From positions 911-64,910 of the forward strand of contig JAITDU010000023.1 of NCBI GenBank assembly GCA_031282405.1: a stretch of 64,000 nt of DNA. The letters run 5' to 3'. The position numbers and the translations under genes were made by a program. This document shows, in pieces, positions 16,896 through 26,332 of the stretch (the first letter of the stretch is position 1; each line of letters starts with the position of its first letter). The stretch comes from Coriobacteriales bacterium. Lineage in GTDB: Bacteria; Actinomycetota; Coriobacteriia; Coriobacteriales; UBA8131. Below the pieces are notes generated by a model that made no database searches, was not told the DNA's origin, and saw only the letters and a list, made by a program, of their open reading frames with translations.

Positions 16896-18073
16896 TGCAG
16901 TATCGGCTTGATCAAAAATCGGGAAACAGACTGTCTGCATTGGGATTTGGCTGTATGCGATTTCCGCGCAGCATTACCATCGACGTGGCCAAAAGCGAAA
17001 GGTTGGTGCTCGAAGCAATCGAAAAAGGTGTTAATTACTTTGATACCGCCTACGTTTACGGCGGCAGCGAAGATGTGCTCGGAGAGATTCTGCGCAAAAA
17101 CAATCTGCGCGACAAAATATATCTTGCCACAAAACTACCTCACGAAAAATGCAAAAGCTATGAAGATTTTGACCGTTATTTTAACGAACAGCTACGGCGT
17201 TTGCATACCGATTATATCGACTACTATTTGATTCATAATGTGGCTGATATAAACGCGTGGAAGGCGGTCGTTGCCACTGGTCTTGAAAAATGGCTTGCCC
17301 AAAAGAAAACGAGTGGACAGATCCATCGTGTCGGCTTTTCGTTTCATGGCGTACAAGCAGAATTTTTGCGGCTTTTAGACGCTTACCCGTGGGATCTTTG
17401 CCAAATTCAGTATAACTATATGAATGAAAATTATCAGGCGGGGCAAGGCGGACTACACCGGGCGTATGAAAAAGGCTTGCCCGTCATCATTATGGAACCT
17501 TTGCTGGGAGGAAAGCTGGCAGGCGGTGTGCCAAAAAAAGCTCTGCGCCTATTCAACGAGGCAAATCCTGACACTACACCGGCCTCTTGGGGGCTAAAAT
17601 GGCTTTGGAATCAACCGGGAGTTACCGTTGTCTTGTCGGGAATGAACGCACCAGAACAGCTTGCCGACAACCTCAAAACTGCCGAAATCGCAACGGTCGG
17701 AACGCTCACAGACAGCGAACTCGCGGTCATAGAAAAAGTCAGAGCCGTGTTTGAAGAAAGCTACAGGACACCTTGTACAGGGTGTAATTACTGCATGCCG
17801 TGTCCCCACAAGGTAAATATCCCCGACTGTTTTGCCGCATACAACGCCTCTTACGCTAACGGTTTTGTCACAGGCATGACCCAATACCTGACCAGCACAA
17901 ACGTACTTCATTCCTCAAGCGGACTCAGGGCGTCAAACTGCGTGAAGTGTGGCTTATGCGAGAAAAAATGTCCGCAACACATAAAGATTCCCACAGAACT
18001 TGCAAAAGTGCAAAAAAGGCTTGAGCCATTTTGGTTCAGTGCGCTACTCAAAATAACGCAGAAGGTGATGTGA
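16889..18073 (+). CDS. Aldo/keto reductase with C-terminal 4Fe-4S dicluster
   Basis: LGFGCMRFP, GVNYFDTAYVY, LATKLP, IMEPLLGG, CTGCNYCMPCP, CVKCGLCEKKCPQ. Confidence 0.92.
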   Translation: MLVQYRLDQKSGNRLSALGFGCMRFPRSITIDVAKSERLVLEAIEKGVNYFDTAYVYGGSEDVLGEILRKNNLRDKIYLATKLPHEKCKSYEDFDRYFNEQLRRLHTDYIDYYLIHNVADINAWKAVVATGLEKWLAQKKTSGQIHRVGFSFHGVQAEFLRLLDAYPWDLCQIQYNYMNENYQAGQGGLHRAYEKGLPVIIMEPLLGGKLAGGVPKKALRLFNEANPDTTPASWGLKWLWNQPGVTVVLSGMNAPEQLADNLKTAEIATVGTLTDSELAVIEKVRAVFEESYRTPCTGCNYCMPCPHKVNIPDCFAAYNASYANGFVTGMTQYLTSTNVLHSSSGLRASNCVKCGLCEKKCPQHIKIPTELAKVQKRLEPFWFSALLKITQKVM

Positions 18074-18350
18074 GGAAGATAGACAGGTCAGAGTGAGACA
18101 ATAAGATAACCAACGGCAAAAAATTATAGACACGGATCTGTCGCGGATCTGTCTCTTGTCTACATGTTGTGAAGAACCCGCGACGATAAGGCGCTACGCT
18201 ATGTTCGGCCCAGAGCAAGGGATCTGTTCAAACTCTGACTTTGTTGTTGCCTCCGTCCTCTCTTTGTGTGCCTCTCGTGTCTCTACACACATTCGGCTGT
18301 ATCTCTTGCCGGTTTTGACATCAAGGGCAATGCTTCTGCCTCTCCTGTTG

Positions 18351-19250
18351 TCACGTCTGTCCAAAATAAGTATTGAGAGCTACGAGCATATCGCCTACGC
18401 AGATCCCGGCATTGAAGGCCACCGTATAATTTTGCGTATCGGTAACATCTTCTTGGAAACACTCGTAGCGGTCAGTGATTGGCGAGACAAACAAGATTGG
18501 CTTATCAGACGAAAGGCGCACGACACCATGGGTAGTTTCGATGGATACCGCCGTAGTTTTGTCGGCCGGCCCGTAGTGATCGAACGCCTCTCGTGCTTCC
18601 TTGTCAGCTTTTTCGTACATCGAATAATCTGTTATGTTGATGACGCCGACTGCCGCATAGTCGGGAGAGGCCAAGCAGGTCATTTTTGCGGCCGGATGTC
18701 GCACGGCAGGAATGAAACGTGCGGTTGCGCCGTCTGCAAAGGTCCCGCCAAAAAGGGCGAACACCGCTTCGTTCATATTGTTGGGAATAAATACCTTGTC
18801 AGGGGGGATAATCAGGTGGCTACAAGGATTATCAGGGTCAGCGTCGTGCAGGAAAAAGCTGCCGCCTATATACACAGAACCATTCTCGGATGATTCAGTA
18901 GAGGTATAAGCAGCGGATTCTGCCGTGCTGACGCTGATAATATAATCTGGATTGTCCGCATGTATATACGAAGGAAGTACCTTGTATTTGGCCTCAGAAC
19001 TTGAAGTATTGTCATTCGGCAGCATCAAATCTTCGATACAACGGACAATGACATCACTGTTACTCAGGCGATACCGCGCGCGAGGATCCGACATCCGGTT
19101 ATCGCCGTCTTTCGGAGTGTTAATGACAGAGGGAAAGGGGAGCTCGGGTGATCGTAGTTTAGGGTTTGTCATTGCAGCAAGAAACGGCTCCGTCTCCCAA
19201 TTCTTGTTTACGATAACCTCAACTAACGGTCTTTGAACCAATGATTCCAT
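18351..19250 (-). CDS. Hypothetical protein, possible remote nucleoside phosphorylase (PNP/MTAN)-fold
   Basis: 299-aa ORF with AAAGGAA RBS; motif order IISVSTA..SIETTHGVVRL..LFVSPITD..AFNAG resembles PNP-fold GxAG, vEME and ISD elements. Confidence 0.6.
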   Translation of the reverse strand: MESLVQRPLVEVIVNKNWETEPFLAAMTNPKLRSPELPFPSVINTPKDGDNRMSDPRARYRLSNSDVIVRCIEDLMLPNDNTSSSEAKYKVLPSYIHADNPDYIISVSTAESAAYTSTESSENGSVYIGGSFFLHDADPDNPCSHLIIPPDKVFIPNNMNEAVFALFGGTFADGATARFIPAVRHPAAKMTCLASPDYAAVGVINITDYSMYEKADKEAREAFDHYGPADKTTAVSIETTHGVVRLSSDKPILFVSPITDRYECFQEDVTDTQNYTVAFNAGICVGDMLVALNTYFGQT

Positions 19251-19313
19251 CTCCGTGTTCCTTTCGTCTGGGGAAGAGCCGGCTGTATCCGCGGCTCACA
19301 AACGTCGCATTGC

Positions 19314-20276
19314 TCACGAATCAACGGTAATTTCCGGCAGTATCGTCCACGGTTGAGAAGGGCGGTCATGCAAAAATGGTGCCAGGTGGTCAAACTGGGG
19401 GTGCGCTTCCAAAAACTCCTGAGCATACCACGCTGTGCCACAACTGCTGCCCCAGCGTGCATTAAGTTGCAATCTCTCAGCGAGTATGGCATCTATCCCC
19501 ATCCCATCGATAGCGCCGCGCGGCTGATAGGGCTTTGCGCGTGACGTTGTAAAACTCCAACCCTTCCTCAAGTTCCCAGATCGAGTCGTCGCGATAATCT
19601 GCTAAAAGCCACGTGTTGGCATAGTCACCGGATTCCCCCTTGCGCATGATGCTGACAAAAGAGGTCGCATCGCCCTCGTCATTGATTGAGGTGAAGTGTT
19701 GGACAGCCCGACGTATGCGGTCAAACTCCGGTATGCTATCAGGATTGTAGCGGTTAAAGCCTCCGATTGTTGTTTCAGTGATGGCAACACGGGCGTTCGT
19801 CTTTTCGCCAACTTCAACCACATAAAAATCCGCCATGGAATGGACATAGCCGATCTGTGTCTGCATGGTAAACCTGTGCCCCTCTTTGGGTGTGATTTGC
19901 GCAATTACATTGGAGTAACCGCTGGTTTCAAAAACGTGACTCCTGCGGCAATCGCTTTTAACTCCTCGGCTATCTCTGGGGAAAGTTTGCCGTCTGCAAG
20001 GCGCTGTACGTCGGCACGAGCATAGTCATAGTCGACACCCATACACACCCACACATGCGTGCGGGTCTCCTCGATATAGGCACGAATCTCTTCTGCGAGC
20101 ATGACTCCGTGGTCGTAGCTGATCTGATAGTTTGTGCCTTTCAGATCCAAAACATACCACCCGTCTTTATATCCGCAACTGCCACCGTATTTGGTGCGTA
20201 CTTTGCGTTGTCCAGGTTTGAATTCTGGCGCGGATTCTCGTGAGGCTTCTAGCTTGGATTCCGGTTTAGATTTCAT
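19314..20276 (-). pseudogene. Fragmented C45 peptidase/phospholipase B-like (Ntn hydrolase) gene
   Basis: Three consecutive frames: GWYVLDLKGTNYQISYDHGVMLAEEI; ITETTIGGF..PEFDRIRRAVQ..GDYANTWL..ELEEGL; ARWGSSCG..HPQF..DRPSQPW. Frameshifts and apparent internal deletions. Confidence 0.7.
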
Positions 20277-20378
20277 GATCCCACTCCCTCTCAGTTCCGC
20301 TTAAAAAGCACCAAAGACAGGGTTGTCCTCAACTTATTTATGATACCATATCACGCGTCTTATTGAGGGCGATAATGT

Positions 20379-20635
20379 AACACAAAGGGGACGGTGGTTT
20401 TTGTGTTAGACTATGCATAAGCTTTGCAGCAGATAGAAGGGCTTCTCCATGTCCAGGCAGTCCCGACACCCAAGCGCTACTAGATGTTCAACAGCTTGCC
20501 TTGGCCGATCGGAATCAGCTGCTGCGGCAGCTGAAAAACAACGGCGCATCGCTTAGGAGAATTTCTCGTTTGACAGGGGTACCTATCGGAGTGATTTGAG
20601 GCGTTTAACACAAAAACCACCGTCCCCTTTGTGTT
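20379..20635. mobile_element. 257-bp REPIN/MITE-like element: 30-bp perfect inverted repeats enclosing a RAYT-like transposase C-terminal remnant
   Basis: AACACAAAGGGGACGGTGGTTTTTGTGTTA (20379-20408) and its exact reverse complement (20606-20635). The interior on + reads LDVQQLALADRNQLLRQLKNNGASLRRISRLTGVPIGVI*. Confidence 0.75.
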
Positions 20636-20722
20636 CTTTAGTGGAGAGTTGCCGTGCGTAAGCATGGCTATTTGGGTTTATACGATAAAAGACTGACAAA
20701 CCAGGAGGAAACGAGGCAAACA

Positions 20723-22111
20723 ATGAGGCAGTTGTGCAATACATCCATCCTACCCTCTCATTCAAGTGAGCATCGCATGCACAAGTCACGGCTTGAACAA
20801 TCTCGGGGGGCTTTTCGTCTCCTGTTGCCTTCTGACACTTTTCGCGCCTCTGATCAAAGGCGTAGCGGCAACAACGGCTTTACTCTCGTCGAGGTCGTTG
20901 TTGCGATAGCCATACTTGCCATAGTCATGACGGTCGTCGTCGGCAGCTTTGTGACCGCAGCAAACATCAGCGCCCGAACAAAAATCTCCTCCACCGACGC
21001 CGAGTCGGTGGAAGACAAAATCACAAAAGGTGAGGGAGGAGAGGCTACTCCCCTCGACGACTTCGAACTCAACGGCTTTAAGCTGCCAAGCGAGTCGGTA
21101 ACCTACACCGAGGGCGGTCGCAGCTACACGGTGCTCGTAGGTACAGACCCAGTGTCGGTGAATGTGCCCACGCTGTACATGGGCGACTTTACCGCGTTTA
21201 GTACTCTCATCCTCAAGCTCGACCCTACCGATGAGTACATAACGGAGGGGCTATACGACTCGGCGAGTAAAAACGTTACTGACGACGCTACGAAGATTAC
21301 GATGGGCACAGCTATGCCCCCTGACCTTTCTTCAGTGACGACCTCCTTCGTGGGGGTTAAAACATCAGGCAGCGACACAGGTTTCGAGTACAAAGCGCCC
21401 GCGAGTGGCTACTACAGACTCGAGGTGTGGGGGGCGGGAGCCAACGGCCCCAATTACGGCGGCTACTCCTATGGCGTCATCCAGCTGGCACAGGACGACA
21501 AACTGTATCTGTATGTCGGCGGCGCCTCCCCCGGCACCAGCGGCGGCGCCAACGGCGGCGGCACCGCCTCCAGCTCCGGCGGCAAGGGAGGCGGCGGGGC
21601 GACCGATATACGCATGAAGGCGAAAACGGTTTCCCTCAGCGCACCTATAAGCGAGAAATCTGGAGACCCCTCCCTCTATACCCGCGTGATAGTGGCCGGC
21701 GGCGCTGGCGCCGGCAGCGCCAGCTCCGAGTACGGCCCCGGCGGAGGTACTAGTGGTGGTACTAATGGTGGTACTCAAACAAGTGGTGCGAACTTTGGTT
21801 TTGGCGGCGCCGGCAGTAGTGCCGGAGGAGGAGGCTGGTACGGCGGCAAGGCCGGCATCTACGGTAGTGGCGGCTCGGGCTGGGTGTTCACCGTAGGTAC
21901 TTACAATGTGTGGAAGGCGTCTGCAGGAGGCAGCAAAGAGACAGAGCTCACGGAGACGAACTATACGTTTGCTGACATGGCTGCGGATGGATATTATCTG
22001 CAGCCGGATCCGGAGAAAGAGAACCGGAACCCGACGACCGTGAAAGGTTCCTCCAAGACAAGCAAGGGCGGCGGCTTCATCCGCATCACCTACCTCGGCA
22101 CGACATTTTGA
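20723..22111 (+). CDS. Prepilin-type N-terminal cleavage/methylation protein with C-terminal glycine-rich domain
   Basis: G|FTLVEVVVAIAILAIV class III signal; YRLEVWGAG, GGYSYG, LYLYVGG, GGGGATDIR, RVIVAGGAG, GGGGWYGG, GSGGSGW, GGFIRITY. Confidence 0.88.
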   Translation: MRQLCNTSILPSHSSEHRMHKSRLEQSRGAFRLLLPSDTFRASDQRRSGNNGFTLVEVVVAIAILAIVMTVVVGSFVTAANISARTKISSTDAESVEDKITKGEGGEATPLDDFELNGFKLPSESVTYTEGGRSYTVLVGTDPVSVNVPTLYMGDFTAFSTLILKLDPTDEYITEGLYDSASKNVTDDATKITMGTAMPPDLSSVTTSFVGVKTSGSDTGFEYKAPASGYYRLEVWGAGANGPNYGGYSYGVIQLAQDDKLYLYVGGASPGTSGGANGGGTASSSGGKGGGGATDIRMKAKTVSLSAPISEKSGDPSLYTRVIVAGGAGAGSASSEYGPGGGTSGGTNGGTQTSGANFGFGGAGSSAGGGGWYGGKAGIYGSGGSGWVFTVGTYNVWKASAGGSKETELTETNYTFADMAADGYYLQPDPEKENRNPTTVKGSSKTSKGGGFIRITYLGTTF

Positions 22112-22117
22112 CACAAT

Positions 22118-22198
22118 GACACAAGGGGACGGTTCCTTTGAAATGACACAAGGGGACGGTTCCTTTGTGTCAGACACAAGGGGACGGTTCCTTTGTGT
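22118..22198. repeat. Three tandem REP-like palindromic units
   Basis: GACACAAGGGGACGGTTCCTTTG(TGT) at 22118, 22145 and 22173, just after the pilin stop codon; same family as the 20379/20606 repeats. Confidence 0.88.
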
Positions 22199-22246
22199 TA
22201 TCGGCAACCCCCGCCATCCCGCAAACCCGCCCAGCGCCATTCAACA

Positions 22247-22302
22247 CAGACAATATGACCCGAACCCAGCCCCTCCAGGGCAGCTCGGGTCATATTGTCT
22301 GT
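22247..22302. repeat. Long stem-loop
   Basis: ACAGACAATATGACCCGA ... TCGGGTCATATTGTCTGT inverted repeat. Confidence 0.7.
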
Positions 22303-22309
22303 AAGATAC

Positions 22310-22453
22310 ATGGACGAGGCCATGCAGCCAATCGACACGCGAGCGACAACCAGGCTCACCGTCATGAGCGACAGCGAGTTTGGCGGTACGGCGTTTGCAC
22401 CTGACGACAAATCGCCTGTGAGCGACGTTTGGGGGCGGGGCGGTTCTTTGTAG
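22310..22453 (+). pseudogene. Remnant resembling the C-terminal half of a transposon-transfer assisting protein
   Basis: MDEAMQPIDTRATTRLTVMSDSEFGGTAFAPDD resembles, from memory, the MDxxM..L..MSDxEF..PD pattern of these small ICE proteins; adjoins relaxase and recombinase remnants. Confidence 0.4.
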
Positions 22454-22515
22454 GCTCTGGCCTGCAAAGGCCGTCTATATGCTGGATATGATACCTGAGG
22501 CCGTCCTACAACAAG

Positions 22516-22565
22516 AGGCGCGGCTGTCAGCTCGAAAGGGCTGGCAGCCGCGCCTTGTTTTTTTG
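22516..22565 (+). terminator. Intrinsic terminator (probably bidirectional)
   Basis: AGGCGCGGCTGTCAGCTC-GAAA-GGGCTGGCAGCCGCGCCT followed by TGTTTTTTT; lies at the 3' end of the convergent Bro-N gene. Confidence 0.75.
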
Positions 22566-22570
22566 TGCCG

Positions 22571-23452
22571 TTATTCCTTGTTAGTGCGCTTCGCGTTATC
22601 CGCGTCGTCGGTTATACCCTCGATCATGTCTGTCACAAGCGTGTTGAGCTGCGTGGCGTTCTTTGAGGTGATAACGGGTCTGCCCGTGTCGGCCTCGATC
22701 TCGTGGCGGGTGTTTCCCGCGATTCGACCGCCACGACGCGCTACCTGTCTGTTTTCCTCGAATGTCTCAGGTTCTGCAGTCTTTGAAATCTCTGTCGTTG
22801 TGGCCTCGGCAAGCATATTTAACACCAGTTCGAGCGTGGTCATGTTGTCGCGCAGGTTTTCCCTCTTCAAGCCTTTGAGGTCTTTGTACTGGCGCGTGTT
22901 CATGCCCGACCATGCTTTGGAAATCTCATCGGTGAGTATGGCGTATTCCATTCCCTGCTTCACGCCGCGAACATCCCATTCATCCGTTAACTCCTTGCGA
23001 ACCTGAATCGCCTGTAGGCGCTGATTTATCCACTCACGGGGGTAACCCTTTTTCAGATAGGTTTCAAGCGCGCGCTCTATCGTAAGCTCCGGGTCGATCA
23101 CCTCGTCAATGCGCTCGCTTCCCACACGGGCAAGCCACATCTTGAACGGCTCGGCCTTCTTGCTGGGAATGGACTGGACAAGGCGCAGGATGCCCTCAGC
23201 GTTTGCGGCAGTGATATGACGCATCTTCCCATCTACCGCCACCATCTCAACAGGGGTACAGATTGTACCCCACTTCGAGTTAAGCTCTACATCACGGCTG
23301 CGCATCTTCTTGATGTATTGCTTCACGTCTGCGCTGTCGGTCAAGACGGCCACGACATCGGAAACAGAAAAGAACCATTCCTCTTTCTCTCCATCCCACG
23401 CCGTGCGGATACGCCTGTTCTCAAACAGTTCAATCTTGTTGCCTTCATCCAT
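22571..23452 (-). CDS. Bro-N domain protein (antirepressor-like, mobile-element cargo)
   Basis: IELFENRRIRTAWD..EWFFSVSDVVAVLTDS, LRLVQSIPSKKAEPFKMWLA, KGYPREWI, LRDNMT. Confidence 0.85.
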   Translation of the reverse strand: MDEGNKIELFENRRIRTAWDGEKEEWFFSVSDVVAVLTDSADVKQYIKKMRSRDVELNSKWGTICTPVEMVAVDGKMRHITAANAEGILRLVQSIPSKKAEPFKMWLARVGSERIDEVIDPELTIERALETYLKKGYPREWINQRLQAIQVRKELTDEWDVRGVKQGMEYAILTDEISKAWSGMNTRQYKDLKGLKRENLRDNMTTLELVLNMLAEATTTEISKTAEPETFEENRQVARRGGRIAGNTRHEIEADTGRPVITSKNATQLNTLVTDMIEGITDDADNAKRTNKE

Positions 23453-23512
23453 TTGGAACTCCTTTCTGTCAAAGACGTTATATCGCAAACCTGCGTTTGC
23501 GGCAATCAGGGC

Positions 23513-24037
23513 CTACAGCTCCGTACTGCGTTCTTTACCCTTTTCTTTCTTGTCTGCTGGATTCAGTATGCTGTCCACGTTACGCTTGATTACCCCGTAC
23601 TCATGAGCCTGCTTCCTCAGCGTGGCGTACTTCGCTTTGAGGGTGTCCCTGCACTCAGTGAGCTTGGCGTGTTCGGTTCGCAGAGCGGCGAGGCTTGGCA
23701 GCCTGCCGCCGTCTGGCCGCAGCTTCTTCAATGCCCGCACAGCAGCCTCGTGCAGTATCAAAGCACTTTCGTGTTCGCGACGGTAAGCGTCCCTGTCCTT
23801 TGCCGCCCGCAATCCTTCGGCGGCGGGCTTGGTGGCGCGGTAGGTCTCGATGTGTTTTATCAGCACGGCCATGTCGGTGAGGCGCTTGTCTGCGGACTTG
23901 AGCGTTGCTGCGGCCCCATCGAAAGTGGCAGCGACCTCTGCGGACTTGGCTTCCAAGTCGGCGAAGTGCAAAAGGCTGTTCTCCGTGAGGAAGTTCAGCG
24001 TCTTGGCGGCTTCTTTGAGGTTGGCTATCTTTGCCCA
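23513..24037 (-). pseudogene. C-terminal fragment of a relaxase/mobilization nuclease
   Basis: WAKIANLKEAAKTLNFLTEN..ADLE.., YRREHESALILHEAA, KRNVDSIL..KERSTEL; the catalytic N-terminus is missing. Confidence 0.75.
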
Positions 24038-24175
24038 AAGACCCCGCCGACCCCAAGAGGTGGATAGTCGATGAGGTTGCCGCTGCCATCGTTCAAAAGA
24101 TTTATGCCCTTTGCATCGACGGACTGGCGGCATCAAGGATAGCCAGTTGGCTTTTTGCGCACAACATCCCTCATT
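24037..24175 (+). pseudogene. Internal fragment of a large serine recombinase
   Basis: KDPADPKRWIVDEVAAAIVQKIYALCIDG..SRIA..L matches the start of a recombinase domain; abuts the relaxase fragment. Confidence 0.7.
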
Positions 24176-24211
24176 CTACATTTGTTGAACATTCTTGCAT
24201 ACAGCAAAAAA

Positions 24212-24598
24212 TCACTTTGCTGACTCAGGCGGCTTTTCAGGTAAAATCTCAAGCCAGCAACCGTCAGGATCCGTAATAAAATAGATGCCCATATCGTAAT
24301 TTTCATAGACGATGCAACCCATATCCTCATGCAGCGCATGGGCCTCGTCAAAGTCAGAAACAGCAAAGGCAAGATGGGTGTCTTCGCTGCCGTTGTCATA
24401 GGGTTTGTTGCGCCCTTTATTCCATGTAAGCTCAAGCTCAAAGTCCGTGGTGTCGTTAGCAAGAAAAGCGATCTTCCAGCTGCTGTCTGCGGGGCCTACC
24501 TCGCGCACCGGCTCAAGCCCAAGGGCCTTTTTGTAAAACGCCAGCGAGGCGTCCATGTCGAGAACGTGCAGATTCTCATGTATCATTCGTGCTTTCAT
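24212..24598 (-). CDS. VOC family protein (lactoylglutathione lyase-like)
   Basis: HENLHVLDMDASLAFY, ELELTWN, HLAF, YFITDPDGCWLE. Confidence 0.88.
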   Translation of the reverse strand: MKARMIHENLHVLDMDASLAFYKKALGLEPVREVGPADSSWKIAFLANDTTDFELELTWNKGRNKPYDNGSEDTHLAFAVSDFDEAHALHEDMGCIVYENYDMGIYFITDPDGCWLEILPEKPPESAK

Positions 24599-24687
24599 TC
24601 AAGCCTCTTTCACCTTTTGCTCCTACAGATTTGTGTTATCTGGCCTGCAAAATTTGTGTTCAGACTAATGCTACCGCATTTTATCCG

Positions 24688-25689
24688 CTATTGCATTAAT
24701 TCCTCTTGAGACAGCTGCCTTTTTCTGCGGTACCAGTTGCGGATAGAATGGGCCGCCCATTCGTAGAGGGGAATCGTCAGAAAGATAATCCACGCGGGGT
24801 GCGGCTGGTCATTTGCGCACATCCACAAAAACCAACAGGCTGTCAGCAGCGGGTAGATGCCAAAAAAGATATCAGAGGCTTTGTGCTTGACGATACCATG
24901 AACGATAATATAGTAGAGGGGAATGCTAAAAAAGACGAAGAGGCCTATCACCCAGGCATCATAGATAAAGCCGACAAGGAGATAGACGCAGGTTACCAGT
25001 ACCGGGAAGGGGAACTTCAACCAGGCGCTGGTACGTCGCCATCCGCCTTCATGCCAATCCCATTCATCTGTCTTTCCGTGAGCATCTTCCTTCTCGACAT
25101 GGATACCGTCGGCAAAACTTACGTGCACTTTCTCGCCGTCGCCCTCTACATGGATGCCGTCTTTCCAGTTTATGTGCACCTTGTCTTTGCCGTCATCGAC
25201 GTGGATGCCGTCTTTGAAGCTGACGTGCACTTTCTCGCCGTTACTACAGCAGGTTCGTCCGTCGTCTGGCTCCTCGCTGGCTTGTTTGTCTGCCTGCTCG
25301 TCAGGCTGGGGCGCTCCGTGTTGATTGTCTGCCTGCTCATTGGCTTGCTCATTGACCCGCGCCGCATCGTATTGCTGGTCGGTCGGTCGGCTTGTCAGCG
25401 TATCAACCCGCGCCGCACTGTGTTGCTCACTGTTGTGCCTGTCTGCTCGATCCTGCTGTTCAAACTCCACATCATCCTTGATGCTGACGTCTACATAGAG
25501 CAAGTCGTCTAACGACACCCCATACAGCTCGGCCAAAGCGATGAGGTTGTCGGTATCGGGAGAAGACTCCGAACGTTCCCACTTGGACACCGCCTGGCGC
25601 GTAACGCCCAGCTTGTCAGCCAGGGCCTCCTGTGAAAGCCCACGCTCGCGACGGCGCGTGGCGAGCCTTTCGGCAATATCTACATTCAT
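24688..25689 (-). CDS. XRE-family HTH protein with repeat linker and C-terminal membrane domain
   Basis: LSQEALADKLGVTRQAVSKWE..PDTDNL; three KVH(V/I)xxxDGIHV repeats; four hydrophobic segments. Confidence 0.88.
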   Translation of the reverse strand: MNVDIAERLATRRRERGLSQEALADKLGVTRQAVSKWERSESSPDTDNLIALAELYGVSLDDLLYVDVSIKDDVEFEQQDRADRHNSEQHSAARVDTLTSRPTDQQYDAARVNEQANEQADNQHGAPQPDEQADKQASEEPDDGRTCCSNGEKVHVSFKDGIHVDDGKDKVHINWKDGIHVEGDGEKVHVSFADGIHVEKEDAHGKTDEWDWHEGGWRRTSAWLKFPFPVLVTCVYLLVGFIYDAWVIGLFVFFSIPLYYIIVHGIVKHKASDIFFGIYPLLTACWFLWMCANDQPHPAWIIFLTIPLYEWAAHSIRNWYRRKRQLSQEELMQ

Positions 25690-25924
25690 GGTTATCTCCT
25701 CGTATTCCTGATATTCCTGAACCTACGCGTTGTTTCCAAAGGAACCGAGTCTAAAAAGCTGGGTCTTTTATGGTCTGACCAACTTGCGTCAGCACTTCAC
25801 GTAAGTTATTGCTTCCAAAGGAACTGGATCCTTAGGTGATCTGCCGCTCTGAATCAACTATAGCAGCAAAGCCTACTTTACGGTTGCGCAAGGCCAAATG
25901 CCAGCTATTCCAGTTGGAATTTTA

Positions 25925-25941
25925 CGCAACTTTTGGTTGCG
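25925..25941. promoter_or_regulatory. Palindromic operator candidate upstream of the XRE gene
   Basis: CGCAAC-TTTTG-GTTGCG; related half-site CGGTTGCG near 25881. Confidence 0.45.
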
Positions 25942-26332
25942 AGTGGGCAATAGGGTCTGTGCTGGGGAGTTGATTCTTGCTGAGGAACTGGTATTCGGGC
26001 TTCGCCTACGAGCGAAGAATGCTATTCCAGAAAGGATGCTTGTTTCCCATCGTTTATGGGTGACAAAAGTGAGTTTAGCGGACTATTTAAACCGTAAGTG
26101 TGGTAATGAGAATCACATAGATACCCCCAGAAGTTTGCCTGTCAAGGGTTGACAATCATACCGTCCTTTTGTCATGTTCGTTCCCTTGTCATGTTTGTCA
26201 CTGTCCCTTGTCACCCTGCAGTCCAGTTGGTTCGCAAACCCAGCCACCCGTGCTTTGCTGTAGGCGAAGCATAAAATGTTAGAATTGGCGATACTACTAA
26301 GTTGATTCAGAGTCCAGGGAGGCAGGTGCGCT

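Follow-up and report, generated by a model that had tools for sequence, protein, structure and literature searches.

Di Nocera, De Gregorio and Rocco 2013 (PMC3733652) describe TIRtrons and their TIRYT transposases with inverted repeats that carry a GGGGWSAS motif and form moderately abundant families, in which dimers and clusters occur. In Quentin et al. 2018 (PMC6006769), TIRYT is equated with TnpA-Y1 subclass 2.1, whose members have a C-terminal helix-turn-helix (HTH)-like tail (Bac_DnaA_C, HTH_23 or HTH_28); of the 292 sequences that Bertels et al. 2017 (PMC5581495) assign to RAYT group 1, 291 fall into this subclass, and REP-like structures are said not to have been found beside subclass 2.1 genes. 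For type IV pilins, Raynaud et al. 2021 (PMC8179133) make the case that the tip of the filament is the probable place where modular pilins are displayed, and their Dataset S1 contains an IPR012902 - PF12810 architecture in two proteins (PF12810 occurs four times in the file). Here we analyze a locus at positions 20379-22198 of a 64,000-nt window (the whole stretch of DNA under study, G000:C7:911-64910) from a Coriobacteriales genome, where a type IV pilin gene with a glycine-rich head is flanked on both sides by hairpin repeats of a Y1 transposase. Both parts are of known kinds, a TIRYT-type repeat system and a modular pilin.

The window belongs to a 2.0-Mb metagenomic bin (G000; 57 contigs, 88% complete, 53.6% G+C). 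Genomes and contigs are designated by G and C numbers, and positions are window coordinates unless a contig is named. One public run contains DNA of the window; it is labelled termite gut metagenome, is probably the source of the bin, and is stored as contigs. According to the original prediction, the repeats may define a movable or exchangeable cassette that spreads or diversifies pilin heads. We think it likely that the locus instead consists of three adjacent elements rather than a single package, and that the repeats do not carry the pilin gene. These would be a decayed TIRtron with two inverted hairpins around the relic of a Y1 HUH transposase (20379-20635), a separate neighbor, namely a modular type IV pilin with an ALK/LTK-type head (20654-22111), and three more hairpin copies in the predicted 3' untranslated region of the pilin gene (22115-22198). 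The features are as follows.

20379-20411, + strand: left hairpin repeat with core GGGGACGGT, read as the upstream arm of the decayed TIRtron (inverted repeat I1)
20468-20599, + strand: relic comprising the last 43 codons and TGA stop of a Y1 (TIRYT/RAYT-like) transposase gene (translation, alignment)
20603-20635, - strand: right hairpin repeat, reverse-complementary to the left arm (inverted repeat I1)
20654-22111, + strand: modular type IV pilin gene (Pfam, NCBIfam, structure model)
21404-22096, + strand: region encoding the ALK/LTK-type glycine-rich domain, residues 251-481 of the open reading frame (PF12810)
22115-22198, + strand: three direct hairpin-repeat copies in the predicted 3' untranslated region of the pilin gene (family D1)
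22515-22566, + strand: terminator-like site with a 19-bp stem, 13 G-C pairs and a T7 tail (consensus scan only)

The inverted repeat upstream of the prepilin gene, which the original prediction had described, consists of 33-nt arms that are 97% complementary and separated by 191 nt. Between them we located the conserved C-terminal tail of a Y1 transposase, which shares 42% sequence identity with the C-terminus of an intact protein encoded on contig C35 (43 residues, E = 1e-6) and 53% identity with homologues in G017 and G041. A homologue search of the genome returned this relic as a partial match to query residues 208-250. Its catalytic part has been deleted: ∼200 codons are gone at the 5' end, and with them the entire HUH/Tyr portion. 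The right arm begins 3 nt past the relic stop, as in intact elements, and the 3' end of the old element is thus in its native state; in the C35 element, the first downstream repeat copy overlaps the stop codon. Because the inverted arms enclose the C-terminal codons of a Y1 transposase, we identify 20379-20635 from its sequence as a decayed TIRtron/REPtron. The locus offers a clean case of such decay, with the two arms and the final 43 codons still present.

The gene on C35 (C35:32936-33691) is the sole Y1_Tnp gene in the genome and is intact. It matches PF01797 above the cut-off (E = 4e-14) and keeps the HUH motif and the catalytic tyrosine, with N59, H60, H62 and Y119 invariant among 17 sequences. 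The motifs NHVH and RYIHQNP are likewise invariant in 17 homologues, and the tail SIRQI.R.TG.SRG is common to all 17 homologues and the relic. The C35 tail has no Pfam match, and other members show weak HTH matches only (HTH_38 in 2/17, HTH_7 in 2/17, HTH_ParB in 1/17 and HTH_23 in 1/17). One + strand repeat is found 35 nt upstream of the gene and three - strand copies extend from its stop codon onward, so that the same inverted repeats surround both the intact gene and the relic; the assignment of the palindromes to a Y1 transposase thus holds. That the enzyme would be a RAYT can be maintained in part: an intact Y1 gene is present, but the protein scores 71 bits with the NCBIfam RAYT model NF047646, below its 80-bit cut-off. 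As the repeats also lack a GTAG head, we file the system as TIRYT and not as classical RAYT, and classify the repeats as putative non-autonomous hairpins of this system (TnpA-Y1 subclass 2.1, RAYT group 1).

The five repeat copies at the locus do share a core, as had been noticed: GGGGACGGT occurs five times in the window compared with a mean of 0.30 over 100 dinucleotide shuffles, none of which (0/100) reached five. The tandem units 3' of the gene are indeed three, 26-nt direct copies that start at 22115, 22142 and 22170 (spacing 27-28 nt; identity 100, 100 and 88%). Complete copies are predicted to fold into single-stranded DNA hairpins with z-scores between -2.8 and -3.6 (left arm, -5.2 kcal/mol and z -2.8; right arm, z -3.5; the two complete units of the trio, -8.0 and -5.8 kcal/mol with z -3.6 and -3.4), and the first unit of the trio, which is truncated and lacks the right stem, does not fold alone (z -0.27). 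Across the genome, the 8-mer GGGACGGT by itself shows no enrichment (53 copies versus ∼80 expected from composition); what marks the repeat family is only the core within its stem context. The left and right repeats of the locus represent different subtypes. Near-identical copies of the left arm are found at C15:28072, at C26:19498 and also in G007, and the right half of the trio matches the repeat upstream of the intact transposase gene.

The pilin stop codon (TGA, 22109-22111) and the trio nearly touch. Six bases separate the stop from the first G of GACACAAGG at 22118, and the distance of seven given in the original prediction is reached when one counts to ACACAAG. The stop codon lies within the left end of a partial extra repeat copy (22109-22117), in which TGACACAA stands immediately 5' of TGACACAAGGGG, and the C-terminus of the window pilin extends 2-3 residues beyond the ends of its paralogues; the original pilin stop may have been replaced through repeat insertion. 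The terminator-like site at 22515-22566 is the likely end of the pilin transcript, and we place the trio in the 3' untranslated region because of this predicted end. A σ70 promoter scan of 20200-22700, which is not informative for this organism, returned none, and an Rfam scan of nine loci (pilin leaders, repeats and the transposase locus) gave no match above the gathering threshold and two far below it.

The enzyme and its repeats are not confined to G000. A homologue of the enzyme was found in 15 of 34 genomes of the same family, and at 16 of 18 family loci the upstream sequence recurs downstream as its reverse complement, with a GGGGACG core and differing stems. In a scan of one genome per species we recovered 588 relatives of the enzyme, mostly from Bacillota and also from Actinomycetota, Prevotellaceae and Atribacterota. 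We compared 74 loci from other phyla at which at least 100 nt were available on either side: an inverted flanking repeat is present at 65 of them, and GGGAC, mostly as GGGGACGGTTCT, at 56. In 45 of 51 cases, the core is enclosed by a hairpin stem of variable sequence. The same repeat pattern occurs 83 times in G019, 27 times in G007 and 19 times in G041 (32 further matches from relatives are not among the matches listed). Repeats of the relatives often form two-plus-two arrays and inverted doublets, the latter with a spacing that is fixed at 64 nt in G007 and at 77 nt in G019. No enzyme homologue was found in the 82% complete genome of G019. When the core motif was searched in the literature as a text string, the matches listed were all unrelated by title.

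The protein encoded next to the relic has the order of a modular pilin: a signal peptide, a long α1 helix, a small β-sheet pilin module, the linker motif TYTEGGRSYTVL and a C-terminal glycine-rich domain. A class III signal peptide, with cleavage between G and FTLVE, is encoded at 20873-20890; the cleavage context (NNG followed by FTLVEVVVAIAILAIVMTVVVGSF) presents Gly at -1, a hydrophobic residue at +1, Glu at +5 and a hydrophobic stretch. N_methyl (PF07963, E = 2e-8, residues 71-95) and TIGR02532 both match above cut-off. Candidate starts are ATG at 20723 (GAGG 5 nt upstream), ATG at 20777 and TTG at 20825, and the public gene call has 428 residues. The head matches ALK_LTK_GRD (PF12810) over profile positions 7-243 of 243 (E = 1.4e-21, 78 bits versus a cut-off of 24.5). 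The protein retains each of the 27 columns that are invariant in an alignment of 30 family sequences, and the gene is intact. An AlphaFold model built with 30 homologues is of medium confidence (pLDDT 65) and contains a 48-residue helix (residues 21-68) and a small sheet before the glycine-rich part. In a Foldseek search against the PDB, the top 21 matches, which are all the significant ones, are ALK/LTK TG domains, and a sequence profile of the protein detects ALK (E = 5e-8 over ∼215 positions) as well as PilE1 (E = 6e-6) and PilA chains. Its best named homologues come from Coriobacteriales bins.

The prepilin gene is an orphan, as the original prediction had it: no pilus-assembly protein is encoded among the 17 window open reading frames scanned between 7414 and 33123. 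T2SSE ATPases map to C32, C33 and C34 and a prepilin peptidase (Peptidase_A24) to C46, with none on the window contig C7. Since one paralogue shares a gene cluster with pilus ATPase genes on C32, the window protein is most probably synthesized as a prepilin, processed by the C46 peptidase and displayed on type IV pili as a binding head. A literature search for PF12810 by name found no paper on bacterial pilins among the matches listed, and the combination of a pilin with an ALK-like domain represents a catalogued but unstudied kind of protein.

Six glycine-rich-domain (GRD) pilin genes are found in G000: two in tandem on C6, one on C32, two cut by contig ends on C13 and C14, and the window copy, which has the weakest domain score. 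On C32, PilB-like and PilT-like genes are followed by a lectin-like pilin gene and directly after it by the GRD pilin gene. The genes at C13:1-1227 and C14:30176-31126 (reverse strand) differ at one position in their first 179 nt and then split into different glycine-rich heads right after the linker TYTEG.RSYTVL, and no hairpin lies downstream of either. Either recombination in the linker has swapped the heads of the two genes, or the pair represents one locus in two strain variants. Judged from these sequences, head exchange does seem to occur in the GRD pilin family, with the breakpoint in the coding linker and not at a repeat.

The 2.0-Mb genome contains 45 open reading frames with a prepilin motif, 43 of them credible (for example C15:28480-29307, C56:82121-83649, C50:25013-32521 and C22:28355-32200). 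Most share an identical N-terminal helix stretch, GFTLVELIVVIVILGILAAIAIPALTGY, and then differ, and many contigs end inside such frames. We also find 21 conserved pilin leaders, among them those at C15:28480, C47:25705, C24:60272, C26:19731 (contig end) and C31:142 (contig start), each composed of a common upstream stretch of ∼80-110 nt, a ribosome-binding site and ATGAAGTC, followed by a G8-G12 tract. Fifteen leaders have a pilin in reach, 2 in frame and 13 out of frame, with homopolymer lengths being uncertain in a metagenomic bin. The arrangement looks like slipped-strand on/off switching of the whole pilin family; the family as such is more striking than the neighborhood of hairpin and pilin. 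In the window pilin gene, a G6 run (20805-20810) that follows ATG 20777 resembles the poly-G leaders in position, and no DNA similarity to them was detected in this region. At five loci (C26:19546-19620, C15:28105-28420, C52, C57 and C11) a long hairpin with 17-nt stems around GGCTCATGGCTYCGCA lies between repeat and pilin leader; its loop in C15 holds an insert of ∼200 nt. The long hairpin had no Rfam match at the three loci scanned (C15, C26 and C11) and may be another small mobile element.

G000 has 15 repeat loci, namely two that flank the transposase gene, six of the ACACA-stem type and seven with the same core and another stem. To count proximity to pilin genes we left out the two transposase-flanking loci and defined a zone within 700 nt of any assembled prepilin gene. 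Several observations weigh against reading the pilin and the repeats as independent neighbors. Six of the 13 loci lie in such zones, far above chance, whether the zones are taken as 3.9% of the genome (binomial P = 4e-6) or as 8.0% of the intergenic bases from a rough gene call (P = 2.7e-4), and two further loci (C26 and C31) adjoin a pilin leader at a contig end. The C15 and C26 loci differ upstream of the stretch they have in common, so that the repeat there borders a segment from upstream of a pilin gene that was duplicated. At our locus, the outer left arm is on one strand with the trio, the geometry that IS200/IS605-type ends would need. With the bin 88% complete and in 57 contigs, some repeat copies may moreover be absent from the assembly.

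The events are in part non-independent, as C15 and C26 share the repeat and ∼45 nt; a conservative count of five in 10 gives P = 6e-4. The other five loci are near mfd and tilS, purN and purM, an MraY-like gene, a glycosyltransferase gene and an unknown gene. The enrichment beside prepilin genes, for which the original prediction had suggested a test, is thus seen in G000, but it does not extend to relatives or to other DNA. In six related genomes with 13 GRD loci, the core is absent up to 1.5 kb from every one of these loci. Among the matches listed, G019 (83 pattern and 9 prepilin matches) has one contig that carries both, 1.26 kb apart, G041 (19 pattern and 7 prepilin matches) has none adjacent, and a single adjacent pair is seen in G009; in G007, the repeat pattern matches 27 times and N_methyl not at all. 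In a comparison set of 80 metagenome loci (151 kb) that match the same repeat pattern, a prepilin-type frame is found within 1.2 kb at 1/80 and a Y1 gene at 8/80 (6 distinct contigs). The co-location is a statistical association in one incomplete genome. If it were mechanistic, it would tie a domesticated transposase to surface variation.

We propose that the C35 enzyme spreads the repeats in trans, presumably as single-stranded DNA hairpins as its family suggests, and that these would have accumulated beside numerous pilin genes of G000. A likely reason is that pilin loci have long, dispensable, recombining non-coding flanks. The trio, which would be transcribed between the stop codon and the terminator-like site, may incidentally alter mRNA stability or translation.

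Such effects could also be the purpose of the repeats, if hairpins had been recruited as pilin regulators (3' mRNA stabilizers, translation brakes or upstream binding sites) and were kept by selection. In E. coli, REPs stabilize upstream mRNA, and near a stop codon they reduce translation. Our trio starts 6 nt past the stop and upstream of the terminator-like site, the GRD pilin gene on C32 has a core-bearing hairpin ∼10 nt past its stop, and five loci lie ∼200-390 nt upstream of a pilin leader ATG. However, at least 35 of the 43 credible prepilin genes and four of the six GRD paralogues have no such repeat, the repeats are outside the conserved leader module, which begins 80-110 nt before the ATG, and no association is seen in relatives. 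We thus regard recruitment as unlikely.

We also consider it unlikely that the hairpins bound a pilin cassette which the Y1 transposase excises, moves or exchanges to diversify pilin heads, as the original prediction had proposed. This idea would account for left arm and trio, both on the + strand, at the two ends of a 1.8-kb segment, for the stop codon within a partial extra repeat and the slightly longer protein end, and for the repeat at the edge of the segment common to C15 and C26; the genome also encodes an intact enzyme, and repeats are enriched beside prepilin genes here. Yet the arms converge around the C35 transposase gene, whereas the near arm and the trio diverge around the pilin gene, and the left and right repeats are of different subtypes. 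An IS200/IS605-type passenger gene would be betrayed by a second copy, an empty site or a junction; we find the pilin segment in single copy with unique flanks, and no contig joins across the gene in the sole run with this DNA. The depth of source-run contigs is even over gene and flanks (11.9, 10.8, 12.8, 11.4 and 13.4). The closest protein is 32% identical among 8000 candidates scored from 5.8 billion clustered proteins. The core is absent from all 13 GRD loci of relatives, a prepilin frame accompanies one of 80 metagenome repeat loci, and the C13/C14 head exchange breaks in the coding linker, with no repeat downstream.

Comparison of 17000-26000 with 26 relatives at the DNA level gave no match in the same-genus genome G001 and scattered gene-level matches only in the others, and in a protein search of the best relative, G005, homologues of the two genes that flank the locus sit on separate contigs. 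The joints 20405>20609 and 20406>20608 were examined as deletions of the relic and rejected: they have only 27 letters per side and represent other hairpin doublets, with 6-31-nt spacers.

We find it no more likely than the cassette that the hairpins of a domesticated Y1 transposase are drawn specifically to the expanded, poly-G-switched pilin family, where they would serve as break and rejoin points in the duplication and reshuffling of loci; if this were true, a RAYT-like enzyme would be a driver of surface variation in a termite-gut bacterium. A wrong join at the hairpins that placed the pilin gene beside the relic is very improbable: an independent assembly of the source run does break at the right arm (18000-20634 and 20605-21529 overlap only in the arm) and again within the glycine-rich region, and the arm sequence recurs in further hairpin doublets of the sample, but the 33-nt inverted repeat alone accounts for the break at k = 31, depth is even over the joins, and the bin contig bridges the site with no alternative continuation with unique flanks seen.

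The surroundings of the locus contain several further features. One of them is another small repeat downstream of the trio, a 36-nt copy of which (97% identity) is present at C24:37897-37932.

22246-22302, no strand assigned: different hairpin with 18-nt perfect arms and a 21-nt loop (inverted repeat I3)

Beyond the terminator-like site, parts of a Bro-N domain gene (22571-23488, - strand) match a contig of G007, a genome from another genus, with identities of 95% (412 nt) and 88% (211 nt). Because housekeeping genes of G007 match at only 65-70%, these values suggest a recent horizontal transfer of the Bro-N gene. Source-run depth is 2-4× higher at this gene. To the left of the dead transposase element, two adjacent short open reading frames occupy 19477-20276 (- strand), one of which weakly resembles C45-family autoproteolytic acyltransferases at their N-terminus (NF040521, E = 2.7e-4, well short of the cut-off); the region may be a broken gene. 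Frames in the right flank had been considered as relaxase and serine-recombinase fragments, and were dropped with only a sub-threshold match to Pfam Recombinase (E = 0.031).

Among known systems, the pilin family of G000 recalls the pilE/pilS antigenic variation of Neisseria, where numerous pilin copies have their 5' part in common and vary in the 3' parts, and repeats lie beside pilin loci. Here, however, we see full genes, many with their own poly-G leader, and no silent promoterless cassettes, and there is no sign of the hairpins in recombination. The window pilin itself resembles PilB (vWA module) and PilC (lectin module) of Streptococcus sanguinis (PMC8179133) in that a linker connects a grafted binding module to the class III signal peptide and small pilin module; it differs in that the module is an ALK/LTK-type glycine-rich domain and in that the gene is located away from pilus genes. 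The ALK/LTK TG domains (PDB 7N00, 7NWZ, 7NX1 and 7LRZ) provide the sole significant fold matches (E = 6.5e-7 to 2e-5, probability 1.00), with low TM-scores of 0.24-0.39 because the model is of only medium confidence; unlike them, our domain is bacterial, fused to a pilin, and without a kinase or EGF-like part.

The repeat system shares with the classical REP/RAYT/REPIN/BIME families of Proteobacteria (Nunvar et al. 2010, PMC2817692; Bertels and Rainey 2011) a transposase gene between two inverted hairpin repeats and repeats dispersed between genes, often as inverted doublets (spacing 43-77 nt in the relatives studied here). It differs from them in the lack of a GTAG head, in the conserved part, which is located within the hairpin rather than at its 5' foot, and in a copy number of ∼15 as compared with hundreds. 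CGTC-tagged REPs were considered and rejected, as in Di Nocera et al. 2013 that tag is at one hairpin end and has no linked transposase. The TIRYT system is the closest: the Y1 HUH enzyme is again longer than IS200 TnpA and has a conserved C-terminal tail, its gene lies between inverted repeats with a GGGG-rich motif (GGGGACGG fits seven of eight positions of the published GGGGWSAS), and the repeats form a small dispersed family with dimers and clusters and one intact gene per genome. In contrast to the published elements, the repeats here are short self-complementary hairpins with the conserved motif mid-stem in a variable stem, one element is reduced to a 43-codon relic, and repeats cluster beside pilin genes. 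The position of the core GGGGACGGTTC within a hairpin stem that varies, seen in several phyla, adds precision to the published GGGGWSAS motif, and the hairpins qualify the statement in Quentin et al. 2018 on the absence of REP-like structures beside genes of subclass 2.1.

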